Origin: Candidatus Moraniibacteriota bacterium
GTDB taxonomy: Bacteria; Patescibacteriota; Minisyncoccia; Moranbacterales; GCA-2747515
DNA: 64,000 nucleotides
Assembly: GCA_027031495.1 (NCBI GenBank)
Contig: JALVQA010000004.1
Coordinates: forward strand, 120,070 to 184,069
Reading direction: 5' to 3'
Below the pieces are notes generated by a model. That model was not told where the DNA came from, did no database searches, and saw only the letters and a list, made by a program, of their open reading frames with translations. Within the stretch, counting starts at the first letter, position 1. The number at the start of each line of letters is the position of its first letter. Positions 51,741 through 64,000 of this stretch are shown in pieces. A program made the position numbers and the translations under genes.

Positions 51741-53044
51741 AAAAAAATATTAAAAAACGTGTGGAAAATCTCGTTAGAGAGCTTTCTTTGAAGTACAATC
51801 TTGTGCCGAATGATGAAGTCTTTCAAAGACTTGTTTCAGAAACAGAAAAAACGTTTTATGTCGATCATAGTCTTTTTGATTTTGAGCCGCTTAGCATTAA
51901 AGGCGCACAGAGAGTGCCTTATTTTAAGAGGGGCAATGTGATTGCTCTTCCTGCTCCTGCAACAAATTCTGACTTTACCGTTGTAAGGTACGATGATACT
52001 TTTTACGTAAATGAAAAAATATTAAAGAAATATAAGGAAAGTAATGGAACGATTAATGCTGCAATTATCGCAGAGTTACTTGAGTTGTCTGTTAATCCTA
52101 TAAAAACAAATTATGACAATCATGCAGATAGTTTCGGTATTGATAATCCTTTCGTGGATGGCGTGAGTGATGTACATAAAAAAGACAGAAGAGTTGAGGA
52201 AGAATATGCGCAACAATTTCTTAGTCCGTTTGTGAAAGAGAAAGAAGGATATTTTTCCGGTTTAACACAATATGTGGAAAGTATCGGTCGTTTCTACTTG
52301 CGATTCTATTTCAAAGATGGTGCATCTGTTATTGATCTGTATGACGCTGACATGCATACTGTTCTATCATATACAGGACGATTTTCCGATATCTATGATG
52401 ATGTCGTATTTGATGATGGAAGTGGCTATATTTCATATGATAATGGTGTTATCTTCTTTGATAAAAGTGGTGCAATGGTTCATGTAGAACACTTTGATGA
52501 TCGCGCGTCAAGAAGTGTTGTAAAGAAGAAAGACGGGGGTTATGTGCTCTATGATGATAAAACGCCATATATCTACGTACTTGATCGTAATTTCACTTTG
52601 CAGGAGAAAGTTAATGTTCCCGCGCCTACCAAAATCGTTACACTTGATAACGGCACTTTTCTCTTTTTAAATTCAAGGACCGGTACGTCAAAAATAGTTG
52701 ACAGCATGTATCAAGAAATTGGTGATGCGGAGTGCGCAAGTAAATACGATGCGGTAGATTTTGGCGAGCGGTATATTGCTCTTTATGATGATGGCGACGA
52801 CAAATTGACATTCATAGACAGAAATAATGGGTCCCTTGTATTTACATTCAATTTAAGTGATGATGAGTTGACGAGAAAAGTTTATGCTGTTTTGCCGCGA
52901 AAGGATGGTATTTATGTTGTGATGGATGTGAACAAAGGTAAGCAGTATTTAGGAAAACATGCAGGTGTTATAAAAGAAGATAATTATCGTTCATTTGCCA
53001 ATATTAATCTCTCTATTGAGGGAACGTTCTTTTATACAGACTAA
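51737..53044 (+). CDS. Fragment 1/3 of a large (~1370 aa) protein: N-terminal repeat (beta-propeller-like) region. TTG start overlaps the upstream stop
   Basis: Repeated D-G-x-Y/YVLYDD/IYVVMD-type strands. It joins the next ORF if one T is removed from the T4 tract at 53030-53033. Confidence 0.5.
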   Translation: MKKNIKKRVENLVRELSLKYNLVPNDEVFQRLVSETEKTFYVDHSLFDFEPLSIKGAQRVPYFKRGNVIALPAPATNSDFTVVRYDDTFYVNEKILKKYKESNGTINAAIIAELLELSVNPIKTNYDNHADSFGIDNPFVDGVSDVHKKDRRVEEEYAQQFLSPFVKEKEGYFSGLTQYVESIGRFYLRFYFKDGASVIDLYDADMHTVLSYTGRFSDIYDDVVFDDGSGYISYDNGVIFFDKSGAMVHVEHFDDRASRSVVKKKDGGYVLYDDKTPYIYVLDRNFTLQEKVNVPAPTKIVTLDNGTFLFLNSRTGTSKIVDSMYQEIGDAECASKYDAVDFGERYIALYDDGDDKLTFIDRNNGSLVFTFNLSDDELTRKVYAVLPRKDGIYVVMDVNKGKQYLGKHAGVIKEDNYRSFANINLSIEGTFFYTD

Positions 53045-54314
53045 AGATGGCAAATATTTTCTTGTGACTGATTACAGAAATAAATTTCAAGTATATTCTA
53101 AAGAATTTGAGCTTATTTTCAGTAAGGAGGCAGATATTGATGATGTGGTAATGAGTAGCGATGGGAATATAGTTGCATTATTGAACGATGAATCTTATGA
53201 AACGTACGTCCCTTATAGCTATTCTGATGAAATGAGAGGGCGTGTGGAGGTTCTTGATATAGAAGGTGCCACAAGAACTTTGAGTGAACGTTTTGCATTT
53301 TTTGAGTATAGTCATTTACAGTCGCATATACAAAAAATACTTGCTGATATTGATAAAGGTGGTGCCGGTGCGACATTTGAATATGCTGATGTCTTTCCTT
53401 TTAGCGAGGACGATATACGGTCCTTGACTAGAGAGGTTGGCGCGATTGAGGCATTTGCAGAGGCAGTGGGGTATGATGCATCGCACTTTTCAAAAAATGT
53501 ATATGACATGTTTCTTGGTGAGAGTGGAAAGAGAGTGAAAGAATTCGTAAAAAGCAGTGGCGAGAAATTTATCGCAGAGATAACTGTTTACGCAAAGAAC
53601 TTTAAGTATGGATTGGACACGATGAATGTTGTCAATACTATTCTTTCACGGGTAGCTTTTGAGAGCGAATCTGAAAAACTTTTTGCGTATGAGATCTATG
53701 ACGCGTATCTTGGCAATGTTTCACGAGATGCTGATGCTGTGACAGTTTTACTTAAAAAGATAGAACAAATAGTGCGTGCGGGATTATTCAGTGATTTGCG
53801 CAGTGCGCTGGATGCGGAATTTGATGGTGAGCGCTCTTTGATGTATTTAGGCAGAGAAAAACCTGCCGGCATGCCGGCAAAAGCGTTTTTGGAGTTTTTG
53901 GAAAGTACCGAGCTCTTAGACGTGAAAGAGTGGCGCGATTTTACACCGAATGATGCTGTAGATATTTTTGATGCCGGTGTCATAGATCCTGTTTTTCTGT
54001 ATTATTTTGGTAAAAAAGGTTTTGTCACTGACGAACAGCTAAATAGCGCGTTTAATAATTTTGTTGCACAGGGTAAAACTTTGCATCAAGCTACAATAGA
54101 GCTTTTGGAAGAGCAGATTGTAAAGGAGGTGAAGGGGCAGAGTGCAGAGAAGGGTGTTTTCGTGCGCGAACTCTTACAGAATATGATTGATGCCTCAAAA
54201 AACAACATCGTCTTATCAATGCGGGCAAGAGGAAAGAATATGGCGATCCGTCAAAAATTGAGATTATGTGCTACCAAGAATACAATGACAAAGATGAGAG
54301 CATGTATTTTGTGA
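52995..54314 (+). CDS. Fragment 2/3: central region ending in the GHKL N-box (FVRELLQNMIDAS)
   Basis: The ATP-lid N-box ExxxNxxDA sits at the extreme C-terminus, then the frame is lost at the A6 tract at 54197-54202. Confidence 0.5.
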   Translation: MPILISLLRERSFIQTKDGKYFLVTDYRNKFQVYSKEFELIFSKEADIDDVVMSSDGNIVALLNDESYETYVPYSYSDEMRGRVEVLDIEGATRTLSERFAFFEYSHLQSHIQKILADIDKGGAGATFEYADVFPFSEDDIRSLTREVGAIEAFAEAVGYDASHFSKNVYDMFLGESGKRVKEFVKSSGEKFIAEITVYAKNFKYGLDTMNVVNTILSRVAFESESEKLFAYEIYDAYLGNVSRDADAVTVLLKKIEQIVRAGLFSDLRSALDAEFDGERSLMYLGREKPAGMPAKAFLEFLESTELLDVKEWRDFTPNDAVDIFDAGVIDPVFLYYFGKKGFVTDEQLNSAFNNFVAQGKTLHQATIELLEEQIVKEVKGQSAEKGVFVRELLQNMIDASKNNIVLSMRARGKNMAIRQKLRLCATKNTMTKMRACIL

Positions 54315-55846
54315 GAAAATTTAAGGACAATGGTTCCGGCATTCCGAGTCTTGTAAATCTTTTGGTTGCGCAGATAAACGAAAAAGATGGCGTTGTGGAC
54401 ACCGGCTTTTTTGGGAGCGGTTTTCTTTCCGTCTTTGAGGAATCTGATATTGTAAATATAAAAACGTCTGATGGAAGCGGCGTGACAAAATATCTTGAAA
54501 TGAGTGTTCGGCGAGATAAAAGTGGTGACTTTCTCGGTTTTGATATACAGGGCTACAGGCAGACAGAGGAACTTTTTTCCGGCACTGAAATTGAGAGCAA
54601 AACAAAAGTGGGGCGCAATAAAATTGCAGAGTTTGAATATGCTATTACAAAATCAGCTATCTTGAAAAATGTTGCCAATTTGCAGTCGTTTCTTGATGAC
54701 GGCACGGAAATAAAAATCTACTTTAATAGTGAAAAACTAGAAAAGGGGACGCAGACACGGCGGGTGGAAACTTTCTCTGTAGATAGTGATACATTCACTC
54801 TAAAAATTGAAGAGGGGGCATTTTCACAAGTATCATCAGGTGAAGGGTTACGTATGAGTGATCTAGATGAAAAATATCTTGCTCTCGTACCGCGTCAAAT
54901 ACGCTCTTTAGTGCATGAAAAAAATCTTTCTCTCATTATTGATGGCAAAATTCCTCTTATAAAAGATAGAAGCATGATTGCAGACGAGCCAAAGTATCTG
55001 CCCGCTATTCAAAAAGCTGTTGCGCAGGGCGTTATAAAAATCGCGATCAAAGAGTTGTTGGAAAACCGGCGTAAATTTGAGGGATGGCCGGATGACTATC
55101 TTGTAAACTACAATTATCACATGTCCTATAATTCCGCAGAGGGTAAGAGAATTATTGAAATTGCACGTAAAATCAATGCCGGTATGGAGTTAGGTGATGA
55201 TGATCTTAAATTTATCTCTGTTGATGGTGTTGATAAGGATTCTATTTTTGCGCGCTTGGCAGTGCTTATCAATGTAGAAATAGAGCGCGAAGATGGTAAG
55301 CGCGAGACAACGTCACTTGCAGCTAAGAGGCTTCTTGGGTTTCGTAATGTTGCACGTGATGACAACATGGAACATATTAGAAAGGTAATACAGAGAGAAA
55401 AAGATATTTTGCATGCTGCAGAAACGTACATGCCAGACAAGGATATTGTACCAAGTTCAATAGATGTCTCAAGGAGAAAAATCAAAGAAACGATCAAGAT
55501 GTTTGATGAAGCTGGTACATCGGTTAATATTGATAGTTTAAACGATCGCGAACGACAGGTCTTTGATGCCATCGAGGGTCTCGTGCAGAAAGTATATCCT
55601 TCAGTTATTTTGATGGTCAAAGAGATGAAGCGTAAAGCCGGGTACTCTTCCGGTGACACCATCGTTTTTGCGCGGAACACTCTCAGCAATGAACGTTATG
55701 CGACTGAGGTCTTAAATCATGAACTGGCTCACTATTTGGAGGGAACCGGTGGGCACGACAAAAATTTTACGCATCAGGTTGATGGCAGTTTTGGCGATGC
55801 ATACAGAGAAGCTAATCGTGCATTATTGAGCGTTTTTGCGACGTAG
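54266..55846 (+). CDS. Fragment 3/3: remainder of an Hsp90/MORC-like GHKL ATPase (G1 DNGSGI, G2 GFFGSGFLS) plus a C-terminal domain with an HExxH motif (NHELAHYLEG)
   Basis: G1 and G2 boxes at canonical spacing. With one extra A at 54197-54202 the N-box of the previous ORF lies 45 aa upstream of G1, the normal spacing. Confidence 0.55.
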   Translation: MCYQEYNDKDESMYFVRKFKDNGSGIPSLVNLLVAQINEKDGVVDTGFFGSGFLSVFEESDIVNIKTSDGSGVTKYLEMSVRRDKSGDFLGFDIQGYRQTEELFSGTEIESKTKVGRNKIAEFEYAITKSAILKNVANLQSFLDDGTEIKIYFNSEKLEKGTQTRRVETFSVDSDTFTLKIEEGAFSQVSSGEGLRMSDLDEKYLALVPRQIRSLVHEKNLSLIIDGKIPLIKDRSMIADEPKYLPAIQKAVAQGVIKIAIKELLENRRKFEGWPDDYLVNYNYHMSYNSAEGKRIIEIARKINAGMELGDDDLKFISVDGVDKDSIFARLAVLINVEIEREDGKRETTSLAAKRLLGFRNVARDDNMEHIRKVIQREKDILHAAETYMPDKDIVPSSIDVSRRKIKETIKMFDEAGTSVNIDSLNDRERQVFDAIEGLVQKVYPSVILMVKEMKRKAGYSSGDTIVFARNTLSNERYATEVLNHELAHYLEGTGGHDKNFTHQVDGSFGDAYREANRALLSVFAT

Positions 55847-57550: not shown

Positions 57551-58303
57551 TTATCGTACAAATTTTTGCAAGTTTTTCAATTGTGCATCAGTTAATTTCT
57601 GTGAGCGTTCGATTGCTTGCTTGATCAAATCTTTAGAGAAACGGATTTGTTGACCAACTGCAAGTGTTGACGGACCACCAACTGCTTTTTGAAGATAATC
57701 TTCAATGTAGACTTTGTGTGCATCGGTAAGTCCTTGTACAGGATTTTTTGCGAGATATCCCGCAAGAGCGCGACGTGCAAGGTGTGTTTTACCATCACCT
57801 TTGTGCGCAACCATTACAAATGCATCAGAAACTTCCTTATCATTCTCTGCCATGCGCGCCGTCTTTAGAGACGTGCGTGTAGTAGATGCGGTCGTTTTAT
57901 TGTCTGCATCATCTTTTGTTGCAACAGATCCTGCGGCATCCTTTGTTTGTGCACTATCTTGTGCCTTGCTTTCTTGCGCTTTTTGAGCACTACTCTTGTC
58001 ATTCTTGGTGCCTTTGAGCGCTTCATTAATTTGCGCGATTACGCCTTTATCATCACTGTTGTTGTCAGTACTCTCAGCAGTGTCTTCAGCAACAGTAGCA
58101 TCGTTAGTTGTTGCGATCTGTGTCTCTTGTGATCGCTTTGAGTAGGAATAGATACCAAGTGCGAGTAAGAGAACGATCACTACACTGATAACGATGCGAA
58201 GGTTGTCTTGCAACCACTCACCGAAAGTGCGTTCGTCATCCTCTTCGATCTCCTCGATATCATCTCTGTATTCGGTCATAGTGTCACATCTCACAACATA
58301 CAT
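57551..58303 (-). CDS. Membrane-anchored hypothetical protein with an acidic low-complexity ectodomain
   Basis: Acidic N-terminus, one TM (IVISVVIVLLLALGIY), then a Thr/Asp/Lys-rich region and a C-terminal globular part. Confidence 0.45.
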   Translation of the reverse strand: MYVVRCDTMTEYRDDIEEIEEDDERTFGEWLQDNLRIVISVVIVLLLALGIYSYSKRSQETQIATTNDATVAEDTAESTDNNSDDKGVIAQINEALKGTKNDKSSAQKAQESKAQDSAQTKDAAGSVATKDDADNKTTASTTRTSLKTARMAENDKEVSDAFVMVAHKGDGKTHLARRALAGYLAKNPVQGLTDAHKVYIEDYLQKAVGGPSTLAVGQQIRFSKDLIKQAIERSQKLTDAQLKNLQKFVR

Positions 58304-58560
58304 AAGGCGTACACCCTACACATGCAGTGAGGTTTTTAATTTTAGATATGTGAACGAACAGGCCTATTCGGTAGACAGTCATTACAGACTGCCATAGTGT
58401 ATTTTAACGTTTCATGGTATACTCGTCAAATAGCGATATTTTCATATGTTTTTGCAGTGTATGTGTTATGATACATTCATAACACATACTTATAGTGGAT
58501 TACATATGTAATTGTGCATGTTTTACGTATTTTTTGGTTTAATAAATTAGATGTAGTGCT

Positions 58561-59256
58561 ATGACAAAGAAAACCTCACGATACAAACAAAAGTATGCAC
58601 GCGGGGCACATGCAATTGTTGCGGTTGATGTTGTTGTTTTTAGTGTGATTAACGAAGAATTACACGTGCTTTTGACGCAAACGAATAAGCCGGAACTAAA
58701 GGGGTTGTGGGCGGTACCGGGTGCACTGGTCGCACCGGATGAATCGCTGGAAGAGGCAGTGGAGCGTGTGCTTACAACAAAAACCGGTCTTAAGAATGTG
58801 CTGACAGAACAATTAGCGACATTTGGTGATCCTGATCGTGATCCGTTTGGGCGCGTTGTGAGTGTGGCGTATTTAGCGTTGGTGCATGCAGATAAACATG
58901 TTCTTTCCACAACACATGAATATGATGCAATTGCGTGGGTACCGGTAGATCGCCTTCCGCGCATGGCGTACGATCACAAGAAGATTGTGCGAGCAGCTGC
59001 CCAACGTTTGCGTGCGAAATTGACATATAGCACGATTGCGCGCGGCATTCTGCCAAAGGAGTTCACGTTGACGCAAATGCAAACAGTGTATGAACATATT
59101 CTCGGACATCCTTTGGACAAGCGTAATTTTCGTAAAAAAATTCTTGCATTAGGCATTATTGAGCCAACAGGGAAGTACTATAGACAGCAGCGTGCACGTC
59201 CAGCTGCTCTGTATCGTTTTCGTTCAACAAAGACGGAAATCGTGGATATTTTATGA
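58561..59256 (+). CDS. NrtR-like Nudix-fold transcriptional regulator (Nudix domain + C-terminal winged-helix)
   Basis: Nudix box GALVAPDESLEEAVERVLTTKTG. The C-terminal …FTLTQMQTVYEHILGHPLDKRNFRKKILALGIIEPTG…RPAALYRF matches the NrtR DNA-binding domain pattern. Confidence 0.65.
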   Translation: MTKKTSRYKQKYARGAHAIVAVDVVVFSVINEELHVLLTQTNKPELKGLWAVPGALVAPDESLEEAVERVLTTKTGLKNVLTEQLATFGDPDRDPFGRVVSVAYLALVHADKHVLSTTHEYDAIAWVPVDRLPRMAYDHKKIVRAAAQRLRAKLTYSTIARGILPKEFTLTQMQTVYEHILGHPLDKRNFRKKILALGIIEPTGKYYRQQRARPAALYRFRSTKTEIVDIL

Positions 59257-59364
59257 TATTGTTTTGCTTTTACAGATGCTTCTAAATGTCACTAACAGTG
59301 GCGTTTTTTATACGTGAAAAAATATTTTTAGCGCATATCCTCTGCTCTTTTTTCGTGAAGGAGG

Positions 59365-59466
59365 TTGACAAAATTTATATAGTGTATATACTACACTATA
59401 TAACACACAATATGTTAGAGAATATCATTATTTTTTCTCCTAACTAAGTGTGTTATATACACTAAG
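59365..59466 (+). promoter_or_regulatory. Promoter (TTGACA-16 nt-TATACT) overlapped by two palindromic operator-like sites sharing AGTGT-N7-ACACT
   Basis: Site 1 at 59376-59402 is TATATAGTGTA-tatac-TACACTATATA. Site 2 at 59444-59466 is CTAAGTGT-gttatat-ACACTAAG. Both lie upstream of the isochorismatase-family gene. Confidence 0.45.
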
Positions 59467-59608
59467 TTATTCTTTCACACGGGGTTACTCATCTAGGAGT
59501 AATTGTGACAATCGCTCGTATTGTCCGCAGGAAACTGTGCTGTGTAAGAGGAATATACAGTGTAGTGTGCATATAAGAAATGCGCACATAGTTCGTTAAC
59601 AGTAAACT

Positions 59609-60445
59609 TTGGAGGTAAAAACGATGGCACAACGTGTTCATTTGGTTGTTATCGATCCACAGAACGACTTCATGGATCAGCCCGACGCGGCATTGCCTGT
59701 TGCTGGCGCGACTGCTGACATGCAGCGCCTTGCGGCGATGCTCTCGCGCATTGGGCACAAGTTGGATGATGTGCATGTTACGCTGGATTCGCACCATGCG
59801 ATTGACGTAGCGCATCCCGGCTTCTGGCGTGATGCTAATGGCCAACATCCGGATCCGTTTACCATCATCACGCCTGATGATGTGGAGAATGGTGTCTGGG
59901 TACCGCGAGACGCGGCTTTGCGGGATCGCATGCTTTGTTATGCCGAAGCGCTTGCCGCTGATGGCAAGTACCCACTCATGATCTGGCGGGAACACTGCCT
60001 GATTGGGACACCGGGGCATAACGTCCAGGCGGACCTCATGGCGACGCTGCTGGATTGGGGACGCAAGAATTTTGCCAATGTGGACTTCGTGACCAAGGGG
60101 GCAAACCCGTTCACGGAGCACTACGGCGCATTGATGGCGGAGGTGCCGGACCCCAACGATCCGTCTACCGGCCTGAACGCGGCGTTCCTGCAAATGCTCG
60201 CCGAAGCGGACATTGTGGCAGTCGCCGGTGAGGCTCTCTCGCACTGTGTTAAGGCGACCGTTGATCAGATTGCCGAGCATATCGGCGCGGAGCATATCAA
60301 GAAGTTCCATATTCTGACCGACTGTGCGTCGCCGGTGGCACAGGTGGGCGATGGGCCGGATTTTCCGGCAATTGCTGAGGCGTGGCTTTCCGACATGGAA
60401 GCGGCCGGGATGGTACTGACTACGTCGGAAGCGTTTCTGGCATAG
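59609..60445 (+). CDS. Isochorismatase-family cysteine hydrolase (nicotinamidase/PncA-like)
   Basis: HLVVIDPQNDF N-terminal motif (catalytic Asp) and catalytic Cys in GEALSHCV. Good RBS ggaggtaaaaacg. About 60% GC. Confidence 0.75.
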   Translation: MEVKTMAQRVHLVVIDPQNDFMDQPDAALPVAGATADMQRLAAMLSRIGHKLDDVHVTLDSHHAIDVAHPGFWRDANGQHPDPFTIITPDDVENGVWVPRDAALRDRMLCYAEALAADGKYPLMIWREHCLIGTPGHNVQADLMATLLDWGRKNFANVDFVTKGANPFTEHYGALMAEVPDPNDPSTGLNAAFLQMLAEADIVAVAGEALSHCVKATVDQIAEHIGAEHIKKFHILTDCASPVAQVGDGPDFPAIAEAWLSDMEAAGMVLTTSEAFLA

Positions 60446-60512
60446 ACGCTGTTGTTCTTAACTGGCGCCACGCATATGGTGTGGCGCCCAACCAAACCTA
60501 TGGAGGTGTATC

Positions 60513-61268
60513 ATGCCAAAGTTACTCAAAGATGACACTGTGCTGGAGCAGCGCAGTTTAGATGGTGGCGCGTTTACATTTCGCGCAGCACGGATTGACA
60601 AGCTCGGAGCAACCGAGTACACGCTGGTGACCATTGCTGTTGATGTTACCGGCAGTACATACGCGTTCTCCGACCAACTGCGTGATGCGCTGGTGAATGC
60701 CGTGGCAGCATGTCAGCGCTCGCCGTTTGTGGATCGCTTGCTGCTGCGTGTGGTAACGTTCTCTACGGCAGCAGGTGGTGTGCAGGAACTCCACGGCTTT
60801 GCCCCACTTGCGGATGTGGACGTTGCCGGATATCCGGTGTTTGAGCCGGATGGTCTGACGCCACTGTACGACGCGGTCTATGCATCGGTTGGCGCCATGG
60901 AACAGTATGCGGAGGATCTCTACAATGAGGATTACCTGAGCAATGGTATCGTCATTGTCATTACCGACGGTCTTGATAACGTCTCGCAGGTGACGCCGGC
61001 GATGATCAAGGAGAAGATTGGTAATATCCGACGCAAGGAGCGCATGGAGTCGCTCGTGACAATCCTGGTGGGCATCAACGCTGAAGAGTACCGTGGTGAA
61101 CTGGAGGCATTTCGGCGCAACGTGGGAATTGATTACTACGTTGATGCCGGTGCGGCCAGTGATGCGACGCTCGCGCGGCTGGCGCAATTCGTCAGTCAAA
61201 GTGTTGTGGCACAATCGCAGGCGCTTGGCAGCGGTGGACCGAGTCAGGCAATTTCCGCCACAATCTAA
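60513..61268 (+). CDS. von Willebrand factor A domain protein, TerY-like
   Basis: MIDAS residues are present: DVTGST (DxSxS-like), the Thr in GLTPLYDAV, and the DG in VITDGLDN. The size (251 aa) is typical of TerY. Confidence 0.7.
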   Translation: MPKLLKDDTVLEQRSLDGGAFTFRAARIDKLGATEYTLVTIAVDVTGSTYAFSDQLRDALVNAVAACQRSPFVDRLLLRVVTFSTAAGGVQELHGFAPLADVDVAGYPVFEPDGLTPLYDAVYASVGAMEQYAEDLYNEDYLSNGIVIVITDGLDNVSQVTPAMIKEKIGNIRRKERMESLVTILVGINAEEYRGELEAFRRNVGIDYYVDAGAASDATLARLAQFVSQSVVAQSQALGSGGPSQAISATI

Positions 61269-61441
61269 AGTGGCATAACCACGGGGTGGCAATCAATATA
61301 TTGTCACCCCTTTATTTTTTGTTGAGGACGGCGAAATGTGTTACATAAAAAACTTGCATTATGTCATAAATTATGACATAATTGCGTCGCGATAAATTTT
61401 TTATGGCATTGTTTTTTCACAACAAAAAGAGGAGGTCAATT

Positions 61442-62299
61442 ATGACATATTCCACAGATACGATAACACTTGTCGGCAGTGCACATCAACGTGCATTTAC
61501 ACCGGGACAAGATGCTGCTAGTGCCGGTGTAGTATCTGGTAAAGCTGGTGGCGCATTTGCCATCGTGTCGGATGGGTGCTCGTCCGGCGGACGTGCAGAG
61601 ATCGGTGCGCAGCTACTAACCGCTGCAGCAGAGCGAGCTGCACGTTTAAAGATTGCCGGTGATGATATGGTGCAATCATTGTTAGTATCCGTGCTTGAGG
61701 CAACAGAGAAGGCGGCATGCGATGTGGCGCTTGCGGATGATGATCTCTTCGCAACGCTTCTGTATGCAATTGTCACGCCTGATCGCGCGTTTGTACGTGT
61801 CTATGGCGATGGTGTCGTTGCGGTCGGTTTCCGTGACGGCACGTGGCAATTTCTTCGCGTTGAGTGGGAAAAGAACACGCCGTTCTATCCTATCTACTAC
61901 ACGCGAAAGAATGTGGACACGTTTCTCACTGTACACGGTAGTGCATTACACACGGCAGTCTATGTGGAACACGTCACATACGACCCTGATGGCACCGCGT
62001 GGCGGCAGTTTTGCACGCGACATACTGTTGCAGAGGGTATGATGGGGTTGATGCTGTCGCTTGACGCTGGAGCATTGCGTGACATCTGCGCACTCGGCGT
62101 CTTTACGGATGGTGTGGCGTCACTTCCCACAGTCCCGTGGGACAACATGATGCGTGAGATTGTAGCATTCAAGAGCACCACCGGTGCGTTTCTGCGCCGG
62201 CGCGTAGGTCATGTGCTGCGTGACCTCAGCATTGCGCCGACAGATGACCTGTCCGGTGCGATGGTATGGCTTTCTTCTGATGACGGAGGTGGATCATGA
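61442..62299 (+). CDS. PP2C-family Ser/Thr protein phosphatase
   Basis: FAIVSDGCSSGG (metal-binding DG), VYGDGVV and LGVFTDGV motifs. Strong RBS agaggagg precedes ATG 61442. Confidence 0.75.
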   Translation: MTYSTDTITLVGSAHQRAFTPGQDAASAGVVSGKAGGAFAIVSDGCSSGGRAEIGAQLLTAAAERAARLKIAGDDMVQSLLVSVLEATEKAACDVALADDDLFATLLYAIVTPDRAFVRVYGDGVVAVGFRDGTWQFLRVEWEKNTPFYPIYYTRKNVDTFLTVHGSALHTAVYVEHVTYDPDGTAWRQFCTRHTVAEGMMGLMLSLDAGALRDICALGVFTDGVASLPTVPWDNMMREIVAFKSTTGAFLRRRVGHVLRDLSIAPTDDLSGAMVWLSSDDGGGS

Positions 62300-64000
62300 G
62301 ACATGTTGAGTTGGAAGGACGCGGAAGCGCGCTTCTCACGGATGAGAAGCATGTTGCCACGGGCGGTGAAGCAAGCGTGTATCGCGACGGTGACACCGCC
62401 ATCAAGGTTTATACGGACCCCGATGCCATGCGTACGCGGGTGCCTGTGGAGAAACTACGGCGCTTGATGCACCTGCGACACGATCACATTGTTGCGCCGC
62501 AGGGAATAGTGACGCACAATGGCGATCCGATAGGGTACTACATGCCCTTTATGGATGGCGCACCACTTCTGCAGGCCTTTCCGACGGCATTCTGGCAGCG
62601 CAGTGGCTTTAATATGGCACAAGCGCTGCGTATTGTTGATCAGATGCGCGATATTATGCAGTACGCGCATGACACCGGTACAGTGGTCGCTGATCCCAAT
62701 GAGATGAATTGGTTGCTTGTAGGGAAGGGTGGCGCTATGCAGGTGTATGCCATTGATGTGGATGCGTGGGGCATAGATACGTTTCCTGCTAAAGTAGTTT
62801 CGCCGAGTGTGCGTGACTATCATGCGGAAGCTTTCACGCCGGAAGCGGACTGGTTCGGGTGGGCAGTTGTAACGTTTCAATTGCTTACCGGTATCCATCC
62901 CTACAAAGGTGTACTTTCGCCGTACAAGCGACACGACCTGGAAGCACGTATGCGCGACAACGCATCAGTGTTTGCGCCCGGCGTGCGTCTGCCCTCGGCG
63001 GTGCGGCCGTTTGCGCAGATTCCGTCAGTGTTGCTTGCGTATTATCAAGTTGTCTTTCAGGATGGTTTGCGAGAGTCGCCGCCGATGATTGGTGGCACGG
63101 TGAGAACGGTCAGCATTGCTGCTTCTGTGCGCGCTGTGCCTGCAGTGGCGCGGGGTGCACTGACATGGCGTGTTGTCTATGACCAACAACCGATAGCACA
63201 CGTTTACCTCGGTGGCCTGGCGCGGACGCGTGAAGGATTGCTCGTGGATCTTGCGACGCACGATGTGCTACTGCGTGACGTGCCGGTGGATGCTGTTGTT
63301 GTGCGCCAGTCAGATAGTGTGCTCGTTGCTGTCACGGACGATGGCGCACCGGTGCTGCGTGTTATTCGTGCACACCACAAACCACAAACAGCTGTACTGC
63401 ACCTGCAAGGGGTGATGCGGTTTGTGAGTGCCGAAGGACGATTGTTTGCAGTAACGCACCGCTCACTGACGGAGGTGCAAGTGCTGCAGATGGGTCGCAC
63501 GCTCATAGCAACAGCCGGTACGGCCTGGCCAATTCTGCCACACGCATTGCAGTGGTTTGACGGCATCGGTGTGCAGGATGCATTGGGTGCGCGATGCCTC
63601 GTCGTACCGGATGCTCACGCGGGTTGCGCTATGGTGCGGGTGCCGGAACTGGATGGGGCGCGTATCGTGAGCGTCGTGCGGCGTAATCGTATCGCTGTTG
63701 TGACAACTGTTGATGATGCCGGGAACTACCGGCGGCGAGTCATCGTAATGGACAGCAAGCTGAAGGAATACACGATTGACGTTGTGGCGGATGCTGAGGA
63801 TGGCATCGTGCAGCACGTTGTGCTTCCGAAGGGTGTTGTCGCTACCATTGTGGAGGACGGTGTGCTGGACATCAGCGTGCCATCACATGGTAAACAACAG
63901 CATATTCGGGACGGCGCACTGCGCACAGACATGCAGTTGGCACACAACAACAACGATGTGTATGTCGTCACGCCGGACGGGGTGGTGCAGCACATTACCA
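62296..64000 (+). CDS. Protein-kinase-like fold protein (putative Ser/Thr kinase), 5' 568 codons. It continues beyond the window
   Basis: My own translation, since it is not in the ORF track. The ATG overlaps the PP2C stop (ATGA) and RBS GGAGG lies upstream. Gly-rich loop TGGEASVY and Lys in AIKVY. Catalytic-loop-like HDTGTVVADPNEMNWLL and DFG-like IDVDAWG. No stop before the window end. Confidence 0.6.
   Translation, partial: MRHVELEGRGSALLTDEKHVATGGEASVYRDGDTAIKVYTDPDAMRTRVPVEKLRRLMHLRHDHIVAPQGIVTHNGDPIGYYMPFMDGAPLLQAFPTAFWQRSGFNMAQALRIVDQMRDIMQYAHDTGTVVADPNEMNWLLVGKGGAMQVYAIDVDAWGIDTFPAKVVSPSVRDYHAEAFTPEADWFGWAVVTFQLLTGIHPYKGVLSPYKRHDLEARMRDNASVFAPGVRLPSAVRPFAQIPSVLLAYYQVVFQDGLRESPPMIGGTVRTVSIAASVRAVPAVARGALTWRVVYDQQPIAHVYLGGLARTREGLLVDLATHDVLLRDVPVDAVVVRQSDSVLVAVTDDGAPVLRVIRAHHKPQTAVLHLQGVMRFVSAEGRLFAVTHRSLTEVQVLQMGRTLIATAGTAWPILPHALQWFDGIGVQDALGARCLVVPDAHAGCAMVRVPELDGARIVSVVRRNRIAVVTTVDDAGNYRRRVIVMDSKLKEYTIDVVADAEDGIVQHVVLPKGVVATIVEDGVLDISVPSHGKQQHIRDGALRTDMQLAHNNNDVYVVTPDGVVQHIT

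Follow-up and report, generated by a model that had tools for sequence, protein, structure and literature searches.

In the present study, a 64-kb stretch of DNA (64,000 nucleotides; hereafter the window, whose numbering is used throughout) was analyzed around the gene of an NrtR-family transcription regulator, nrtR, and the nicotinamidase-like gene that follows it behind two palindromic operators. These elements very likely belong to the NAD-salvage regulon of a probable candidate phyla radiation (CPR) bacterium, the closest relatives of which are Moraniibacteriota, and this regulon would be run by an NrtR-family repressor. The regulon is of the known NrtR type with a lineage-specific operator, and the reading proposed in a first-pass annotation of the window is right in substance. 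Textbook NrtR biology is extended herein into a poorly studied lineage, and a usable operator consensus, TTAGTGTA-N5-TACACTAA, is supplied; CPR bacteria are thought to depend on cofactor salvage. Several additions have been made to the earlier reading, namely a large unannotated nicotinamidase family, a promoter/operator block that is apparently duplicated, and a conserved module of nicotinamidase, probable vWA, PP2C and kinase genes that is common to large phages. The occurrence of this module inside NAD-salvage loci and in many large phage genomes, and its apparent bracketing here by duplicated NrtR-controlled promoters, are the less ordinary aspects of the system.

The regulator and its twin operators

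The product of nrtR (231 residues; Table 1) matches the Pfam families NrtR_WHD (PF21906; E 7.5e-25, 87.3 bits against a cut-off of 27, residues 163-220) and NUDIX (PF00293; E 6e-15, 55.8 bits against a cut-off of 21.1, residues 22-144), and was aligned end to end with the solved NrtR-family regulators AraR of Bacteroides thetaiotaomicron (BtAraR, 5bs6; E 8e-45) and NrtR of Shewanella (SoNrtR, 3gz5; E 5e-30). The DKRNFRK and AALY(R/K)F segments align with the winged helix-turn-helix of both structures. The first-pass annotation had described a Nudix-box protein with an NrtR-type winged helix at its C-terminus; the C-terminal domain is of this type according to both PF21906 and the full-length alignments, whereas the Nudix box is degenerate. 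In the sequence and PDB alignments its REUxEE segment reads RVLTTK and the three catalytic glutamates are gone, indicating that the Nudix domain is a sensor and not a hydrolase. The box is likewise degenerate in SoNrtR and BtAraR, and a one-residue insertion within it is common to the window protein and AraR. Judged from its sequence, the regulator combines a Nudix sensor domain devoid of catalytic function with an NrtR winged helix.

The spacer between nrtR and the nicotinamidase gene measures 367 bp, against the 350 bp given earlier, and the promoter/operator block begins 108 bp 3' of nrtR. In this block, a -35 box (TTGACA, 59365-59370) is separated by 16 nt from a -10 box (TATACT, 59387-59392), and the -10 box lies inside operator 1, in line with the promoter overlap claimed earlier for the first of two palindromes; operator 1 covers both this box and the likely transcription start. 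The starts of the two operators are 66 bp apart, in agreement with the earlier estimate. Exactly two matches to AGTGT-N7-ACACT were found in the window, namely the cores of operators 1 and 2, compared with 0.04 expected from shuffles, and two or more such sites were found in 0 of 100 shuffles of the window; the earlier description of two palindromes with the same core and spacing is upheld by these counts. With one mismatch allowed, only two extra sites appeared in the window, at the chance rate and both far off.

The distribution of the motif in related genomes provides the second line of evidence. A scan with the nicotinamidase as query, using one genome per species, yielded 80 loci from many CPR phyla and from Bradyrhizobium, Rhodopseudomonas, Micavibrio, Ramlibacter and Rhodoferax, the closest of which was found in a metagenome-assembled genome of Moraniibacteriota (94% identity). 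In the 1.30 Mb of these loci, 110 sites with at most one mismatch to AGTGT-N7-ACACT were observed, compared with approximately 25 in locally shuffled sequence. Seventy of the 110 fell in upstream zones of NAD genes (600 bp 5' of the nicotinamidase gene, pncB, nadE, the nadM-like gene and nrtR; 84 kb in total), corresponding to 0.83 sites per kb compared with 0.033 per kb elsewhere, or an approximately 25-fold higher density. The positions flanking the search pattern were also palindromic (TT at -2/-1, AA at +17/+18, A at 5 and T/G at 11), and the lineage consensus of these 70 sites, given above, fits the 21-bp palindrome with a GT-N7-AC core that is the NrtR operator signature of most groups (PMC2330246). 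Moreover, on a sister contig encoding an identical NrtR protein (L001), both sites recur 122 and 56 bp 5' of pncB-nadE, and on a contig from an independent study with a 77% identical NrtR (L004), the block is conserved from GGTTGACA, at the -35 box, through operator 2, while both flanks have diverged. Further sites at NAD genes, which the first-pass annotation had expected, and conservation of the palindromes in an orthologous region, the lack of which it would have taken as a refutation, were both observed in this way. NrtR sites before pncA and before pncB-nadD-nadE of Clostridium acetobutylicum have already been listed (PMC2330246), and therefore the regulatory design is already known.

Several side observations concern the leader and the spacers. 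The segments TATATAACACAC (59397-59408) and GTGTGTTATATA (59448-59459) are perfectly complementary, and a transcript starting at approximately 59399 could, in the folding model, place its 5' end on the left half of operator 2 (minimum free energy -17.6 kcal/mol). L004 retains this pairing with other bases (TATAAACAAC / GTTGTTTATA), which looks compensatory, with only two sequences having the short-spacer layout. The inter-operator spacer in the window is only 49 nt long and retains a T-run, and G+C-rich spacers of 100-170 nt lie between operators 1 and 2 in several Moraniibacteriota loci (L009 9760-9905, L012 9575-9725 and 9735-9900, L014 4065-4215, and L010 9755-9835). These G+C-rich spacers end in a GC hairpin and a T-run directly 5' of 'CCCTACTTAGTGT', and may represent a leader RNA or an attenuator. 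No Rfam family matched significantly in positions 58200-61500 or in the long leaders of L009, L012 and L014, by which a riboswitch or another known RNA was ruled out for the leader. Upstream of nrtR, a perfect inverted repeat of 13+13 bp is unique in the window, with 0 expected by chance; it was ruled out as a further NrtR site by its half-site spacing and sequence, and its position before nrtR is taken by an NrtR site in many related genomes. The 8-mer TGTGTTAT is common to this repeat, operator 2 and the flank of operator 1, and four of its nine copies in the window lie within the two spacers, that is, before nrtR and between nrtR and the nicotinamidase gene.

The nicotinamidase gene and its cassette

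The gene behind the operators starts with an ATG at 59624, preceded by GGAGG 8 nt upstream. Its product scored 13.8 bits against the Pfam Isochorismatase family (PF00857), the gathering cut-off of which is 27, and gave no significant Pfam or NCBIfam match; the earlier assignment to the isochorismatase family is thus not supported at the level of Pfam, but it is supported by profile and fold, and the nicotinamidase-like function proposed for this target agrees with profile, fold and active-site residues alike. The protein family comprises 3,845 database proteins, some of which are named nicotinamidase in JGI and a few of which carry a precomputed PF00857 match; a large nicotinamidase family missed by standard domain libraries has therefore been recognised. 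In 24 aligned members, D11, K158 and C208 (the Asp-Lys-Cys triad) are invariant, as are H57 and H124 of the metal site, and D55 is nearly invariant. The WPxHC motif (W121-P122-x-H124-C125) is kept and aligns with 'WPVHC' of yeast Pnc1, and the metal site aligns with 'DWH'. Against the PDB, the family profile matched only nicotinamidases, with Pnc1 at 2.8e-12, and Foldseek with the AlphaFold2 model (predicted local distance difference test score, pLDDT, 85) placed nicotinamidases at all of ranks 1-11 (best E 3e-13). In Ramlibacter and related proteobacteria (L052, L060 and L080), a homologue is found immediately 5' of pncB-nadE, and nrtR is oriented divergently; this operon context supports the predicted hydrolysis of nicotinamide to nicotinate. 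Since profile, fold, active-site residues and the pncB-nadE context agree, the protein is, on sequence and model evidence, a divergent PncA nicotinamidase.

Three genes follow in the same direction. The product of the first, a protein of 251 residues, is probably a vWA protein, as judged from invariant residues resembling a metal ion-dependent adhesion site (D44, S48, T116 and D152-G153) and from third-party names, in that its homologues are called 'YegL' in JGI and 'vWA domain-containing' in one NCBI record. It has a conserved Ser-rich C-terminal tail; no significant Pfam or PDB-profile match was obtained for it, and tblastn against plasmids was uninformative. The second product is a PP2C-family phosphatase, and the third a Ser/Thr protein kinase, which is 572 residues long on the sister contig L003; its kinase domain lies at the N-terminus, and approximately 290 residues at the C-terminus form an all-beta domain. 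The kinase matched PDB kinases at 3e-07, and the top Foldseek matches of its AlphaFold2 model (pLDDT 86) were protein kinases; the list for the whole protein was dominated by the kinase domain and gave no identity for the all-beta domain. A terminator lies just past the window behind the kinase, and two small open reading frames (ORFs) and a third terminator precede the right-hand repeat described below (L003). Terminators are thus present after vWA, kinase and the second small ORF, and the nicotinamidase-vWA transcript should end at the first of these, for which a similar hairpin with a T-run is present in L004. The terminator after vWA and the separate upstream region of PP2C-kinase make NrtR control of PP2C and kinase doubtful. 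Direct control would accordingly be expected for nicotinamidase and vWA, with PP2C and kinase reached by read-through only, so that the earlier claim of a regulon extending over vWA, PP2C and kinase is retained for vWA and not for the other two. A perfect palindrome located 3' of the vWA terminator and 5' of PP2C occurs only once in the window and is absent from L004; it was ruled out as an NrtR site by half-site spacing and sequence.

The promoter in front of this cassette is apparently a second copy. Two contigs from one sample (ERZ23491057) were compared with the window, namely L001, which was found by exact look-up of the NrtR protein, and L003 (5,552 bp); L002, a Logan contig of a different run, was included as well. 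Over 10,908 bp, a single base separates L001 from the window (A at 59457 in the window, G in L001); past 59468 the two sequences part, and L001 leads into pncB (NAPRTase), followed by nadE and a gene resembling cytidylyltransferases (nadM-like), where the window continues into the nicotinamidase gene. L003 carries the nicotinamidase, and its first base corresponds to 59402 of the window, which is 55 nt ahead of the variant base; the end of this contig (5503-5552), with TTGACA and operator 1, equals window positions 59365-59414 except for a single-nucleotide polymorphism (T to C at 59375). L002 stops at 59405, where the final 31-mer to include T at 59375 ends; a stop at this point would be predicted if the same downstream sequence were also entered from a second copy bearing the C variant. 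The variant pattern is thus T...A in the left copy and T...G in the empty site of L001, with the right copy starting with C. From these comparisons, the operators apparently belong to the nrtR-pncB promoter, with the nicotinamidase cassette behind a duplicated copy of it, and the 104-bp block apparently flanks as a direct repeat a cassette of approximately 5.4 kb, which appears to comprise nicotinamidase, probable vWA, PP2C, Ser/Thr kinase and the two small ORFs. The simplest layout would be nrtR, left block (T at 59375, A at 59457), cassette, terminator, right block (beginning with C at 59375, and presumably with G at 59457) and pncB-nadE, and the cassette-free T...G variant would be the product expected from recombination between the two block copies. 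Some members of one population appear to carry the cassette and others to lack it. In eight other genomes (including L006, L016, L019, L021, L024, L029 and L037) it is flanked by direct repeats of 28-520 bp, with an 83-bp repeat just upstream of pncB in L029, and no match to a recombinase (integrase or transposase) was found among the six cassette genes. The G+C content rises at the nicotinamidase gene (0.55-0.58 over 59600-64000, compared with 0.44 over 1-59256; intergenic DNA 0.23-0.41). It amounts to 0.54-0.58 in the cassette, and the cassette exceeds its flanks in 36 of the 39 cassette loci with usable flanks, by up to 0.12.

The four genes occur in the same order in 40 of the 80 loci. Within 10 kb of this set, nrtR, pncB, nadE or the nadM-like gene is found in 26 of these 40; the operator motif lies within 600 bp 5' of the nicotinamidase gene also in 26 of 40, and on the long contigs L014, L029, L021 and L037, pncB is located just beyond the kinase. 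In many proteobacteria the nicotinamidase gene stands alone in plain nrtR-pncB-nadE operons. Homologues of the nicotinamidase (47% identity) with a vWA homologue nearby are also present in curated huge phages, and among 79 IMG/VR viral contigs with a nicotinamidase homologue, vWA was found in 68, kinase in 65, pncB in 17, nadE in 12 and nrtR in 10. The CPR operator motif is at chance level in the viral contigs (22 sites in 1.26 Mb), and it is therefore unlikely that most of them are misclassified CPR genomes. The closest IMG/VR contigs (approximately 110-130 kb) bear isolate-genome identifiers, and the four-gene unit also recurs in parts of Bradyrhizobium isolate genomes that are listed as viral in IMG/VR.

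Variants of the cassette were also observed. In Bradyrhizobium embrapense (L017, 3998-19285) it lies inside a same-strand run of genes that includes radical SAM, PRAI-like, Dam methylase, RNase T-like exonuclease and HerA-like ATPase genes, and an extra ORF of 128 codons is present between PP2C and kinase. On plasmid 2, a megaplasmid, of Variovorax sp. WDL1 (L084, 4532-10776), an NrtR-like gene (36% identity) faces nicotinamidase and vWA homologues in a cluster without PP2C or kinase that also holds macro-domain, RecX, second Nudix, nucleoside 2-deoxyribosyltransferase-domain and NAD kinase genes, and which is a further neighbourhood of the nicotinamidase-vWA pair centred on NAD and ADP-ribose. 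A protein of 228 residues with no Pfam match is encoded just 5' of the nicotinamidase gene in a subset of cassettes (L019 5412-6134 and 10988-11674; L013 1144-1827; L015 9275-9958; L025 9257-9940; L027 9258-9940); L019 has two copies of it (79% identity), one to either side of the cassette, and the left copy is fused in frame to the nicotinamidase. Elsewhere in the window, two long ORFs of 439 and 526 codons with a 49-nt overlap (52995-55846) lie upstream of glycosyltransferase-4 and DUF192 genes, and no Pfam families are recorded for them or their upstream neighbours in the contig look-up.

Table 1. Features of the nrtR-nicotinamidase region in window coordinates (a dot marks features without strand)
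Feature	Position	Strand	Basis
Perfect 13+13 inverted repeat GTATGTGTTATGA-N5-TCATAACACATAC	58459..58489	.	72 nt 5' of nrtR; overlaps a weak promoter-like site
nrtR, NrtR-family transcription regulator, 231 aa	58561..59256	+	Pfam and PDB matches
Promoter/operator block, 104 bp (-35 box, -10 box, operators 1 and 2); apparent left copy of direct repeat	59365..59468	+	Comparison with sister contigs and L004
Sigma-70-type promoter TTGACA-16-TATACT	59365..59392	+	11 of 12 consensus matches, best in region
Operator 1, perfect 12+12 inverted repeat TTATATAGTGTA-tatac-TACACTATATAA, core 59381-59397	59375..59403	.	Pattern and repeat scan
Operator 2, TAAGTGTgttatatACACTAA, core 59447-59463, in leader	59445..59465	.	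Pattern scan; kept in L001 (one spacer SNP, 59457) and L004
Cassette-specific leader	59469..59623	+	No counterpart in L001 nrtR-pncB spacer; no strong promoter of its own
Divergent nicotinamidase (PncA-like), 273 aa	59624..60445	+	Active-site residues, family profile, fold
Probable TerY/YegL-type vWA protein, 251 aa	60513..61268	+	MIDAS-like residues, third-party names
Intrinsic terminator, 11-bp stem and T-run	61283..61310	+	After vWA; similar hairpin and T-run in L004
Perfect 12+12 palindrome ATTATGTCATAA-a-TTATGACATAAT	61358..61382	.	Between vWA terminator and PP2C
PP2C-family phosphatase, 285 aa	61442..62299	+	Pfam PP2C_2 E 1.4e-17; stop overlaps kinase start
Ser/Thr protein kinase	62296..64000	+	Profile and fold; cut 4 codons before stop by window end

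Proposed mechanism and alternative explanations

Herein, we propose that NrtR dimers bound to both operators would block transcription, and that a NAD-derived ligand, which by analogy with characterised NrtRs would be ADP-ribose, would relieve this repression during NAD breakdown. The left copy of the block would drive the nicotinamidase and probable vWA genes, PP2C-kinase and the two small ORFs would be separately terminated units, and the right copy, which is seen only on sister contigs, would drive pncB-nadE and the nadM-like gene. Together, the genes of the regulon would convert nicotinamide to nicotinate, nicotinate mononucleotide, nicotinate adenine dinucleotide and finally NAD.

Several results weigh against this model or against parts of it. 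Repression, effector and enzyme activity have been inferred; no further AGTGT-N7-ACACT sites were found in the other 63 kb of the window, and no NrtR site was found upstream of nrtR itself in this genome. The regulator matched NCBIfam NF050029 (ADPR-responsive repressor NtrR) at E 3e-42 but with 144.8 bits, compared with an equivalog cut-off of 400, and by this score it is a member of the NrtR family and not an equivalog of the NF050029 clade. In the alignment, Arg41 and Arg98 of SoNrtR, which contact ADP-ribose (PMC4666351), are replaced by Thr and Phe, and the closest solved relative is the arabinose sensor BtAraR; the ligand therefore may not be ADP-ribose. Alternative ligands of the regulator could be NAD, which is sensed by NdnR, derivatives of nicotinamide or nicotinate, or a different ribosyl compound, in which case the logic would differ from an induction of salvage by NAD breakdown. 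Besides the two replaced arginines, this alternative is favoured by the stronger match to arabinose-binding BtAraR (8e-45) than to ADP-ribose-binding SoNrtR (5e-30), and by the several effectors known in the family (PMC4666351). However, every target identified here and in related genomes is in NAD salvage, the counterpart of BtAraR Arg86, which contacts the hydroxyls of ribose or arabinose, has been kept, and ADP-ribose is the effector of both NAD-regulon NrtRs that have been tested in vitro (PMC2330246). Another effector is considered unlikely.

The other points against the proposed layout concern the assembly. The right junction of cassette, repeat and pncB was found on no single contig, either in exact-pattern scans of JGI metagenomes or in a look-up of the exact kinase protein (P0241), which returned only L003 and not the 189-kb contig of NCBI, and the L001 assembly from the same sample joins nrtR directly to pncB. 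The one-genome-per-species scan, in which the best match had 94% identity, did not include the source genome. The cassette may thus be polymorphic, excised as a circle, or misjoined across the 81-bp stretch between the variant positions, and the jump in G+C content at approximately 59600 was rejected as proof of a foreign island, given that pncB (0.56) and nadE (0.53) on L001 (10943-13981) are as G+C-rich as the cassette. In a rival reading, the nrtR-nicotinamidase junction would be an assembly artefact, with a chromosomal order of nrtR-pncB-nadE and a cassette that is a circular element or lies elsewhere and shares approximately 100 bp with the promoter region. The direct passage of L001 from operators into pncB, a 13-nt overlap of the end of L003 with its own start, which is compatible with a circle, and the ability of 81 bp of repeat between 59375 and 59457 to mislead an assembler would all fit such an artefact. 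Nevertheless, NrtR, nicotinamidase and kinase are recorded together on one NCBI contig of 189,374 bp, the nearest relative, from the independent study (L004), has the same order of nrtR, two operators and nicotinamidase, the motif precedes the nicotinamidase gene in most cassette loci and pncB follows the kinase on the four long contigs mentioned above, and the variant pattern given above fits an integrated cassette. An artefact is considered improbable.

The function of the cassette has also to be considered. It might mainly be a phage-host conflict module, acting in defence or counter-defence around NAD depletion and switched on via NrtR when NADases release ADP-ribose, a reading that is possible but doubtful. 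The frequency of vWA and kinase genes (and in some cases pncB, nadE and nrtR) on viral contigs with the nicotinamidase, the presence of nicotinamidase and vWA genes in curated huge phages, and the location of the Bradyrhizobium cassette beside Dam methylase, exonuclease and HerA-like genes, with isolate-genome identifiers on the closest IMG/VR contigs, point in this direction, as does the combination of vWA, PP2C and kinase, which we take to be the composition of the TerY-P triad. On the other hand, neither TerY-P nor any other PADLOC model matched the nicotinamidase, vWA or PP2C, and the kinase showed only weak similarity to PD-T4-6 and mad6 (2e-5), by which a known defence system was ruled out; the nicotinamidase stands alone in plain salvage operons of many proteobacteria; and small-genome bacteria filed as viruses by mistake could account for some of the 'viral' IMG/VR contigs of 0.3-0.5 Mb, although the CPR operator motif is missing from these. 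The combination of a nicotinamidase or isochorismatase with the vWA/PP2C/kinase set was not found in the viral NAD-ADP-ribose survey, the jumbo-phage and NARP3 papers or a full-text library search. We tentatively hypothesize, as a speculation more likely to fail than to hold, that the four-gene set is an undescribed, horizontally mobile module of CPR bacteria, alphaproteobacterial regions listed as viral in IMG/VR, and huge phages, which couples NAD salvage to a phospho-switch, and which in CPR genomes was wired to the ADP-ribose-type sensor NrtR by duplication of the 104-bp block and is thereby induced upon NAD cleavage, e.g. by NADase immune effectors or phage attack. If the module is functional, a tellurite-resistance/defence signalling triad would be linked to NAD turnover, a central battleground between phages and bacteria.

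Comparison with known systems

The TerY-P triad reportedly consists of a TerY-type vWA protein, a PP2C phosphatase and a Ser/Thr kinase. Similarly, genes of a probable vWA protein, a PP2C phosphatase and a Ser/Thr kinase are adjacent here in one direction, and the Ser-rich tail of the probable vWA protein could be a phosphorylation target; in contrast, there is no PADLOC match to TerY-P, a nicotinamidase gene precedes, the set lies in NAD-salvage loci, and the kinase has a C-terminal all-beta domain. The nicotinamidase shares with PncA/Pnc1 (2wta, 2h0r and 3pl1) the isochorismatase-like fold, the Asp-Lys-Cys triad, the Asp/His/His metal site, the WPxHC motif and the pairing with pncB, but it differs in its low identity (15-22%), its approximately 70 extra residues, its score below the Pfam Isochorismatase threshold and the vWA gene that usually follows. 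Phage NAD pathways (NARP1-3, PMC13464706; jumbo-phage Preiss-Handler clusters, PMC11662467) resemble the situation on large viral contigs, where nicotinamidase homologues occur with pncB, nadE and nadM-like genes; however, the pathways described use NadV/NadM, Adps/Namat or NadR/PnuC, and a term search of both papers found no mention of a vWA protein or a protein kinase.

With respect to the regulator, BtAraR (5bs6; PMC4666351) is the closest solved relative, the match extending over 214 residues, and has in common with the window protein a degenerate Nudix box with 24-residue spacing and two 21-bp sites per promoter, in tandem or separated. BtAraR senses L-arabinose and controls arabinose genes, whereas the predicted targets here are all in NAD salvage. 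The NrtR regulons of Shewanella oneidensis and Synechocystis (Rodionov et al. 2008, PMC2330246; 3gz5, 3gz6 and 3gz8) share the Nudix-like sensor with a C-terminal winged helix, the 21-bp GT-N7-AC operators overlapping or following the promoter, the NAD-salvage targets and the location of the regulator gene next to its targets. The differences consist of an identity of approximately 30%, the half-site TTAGTGTA, the two ADP-ribose-contacting arginines that are not conserved, the lack of an NrtR site before nrtR, and targets that are pncA-like, pncB and nadE instead of prs-nadV. The nearest counterpart in gene organisation is the known arrangement of nrtR beside pncA and pncB, with separate sites before the nicotinamidase gene and before pncB-nadE, an identical logic of regulation and a near-identical gene order; the present locus departs from it in a nicotinamidase that is divergent and longer (no Pfam match) and has vWA, PP2C, kinase and two small ORFs behind it, and in two promoters that appear to be near-identical direct repeats of 104 bp.

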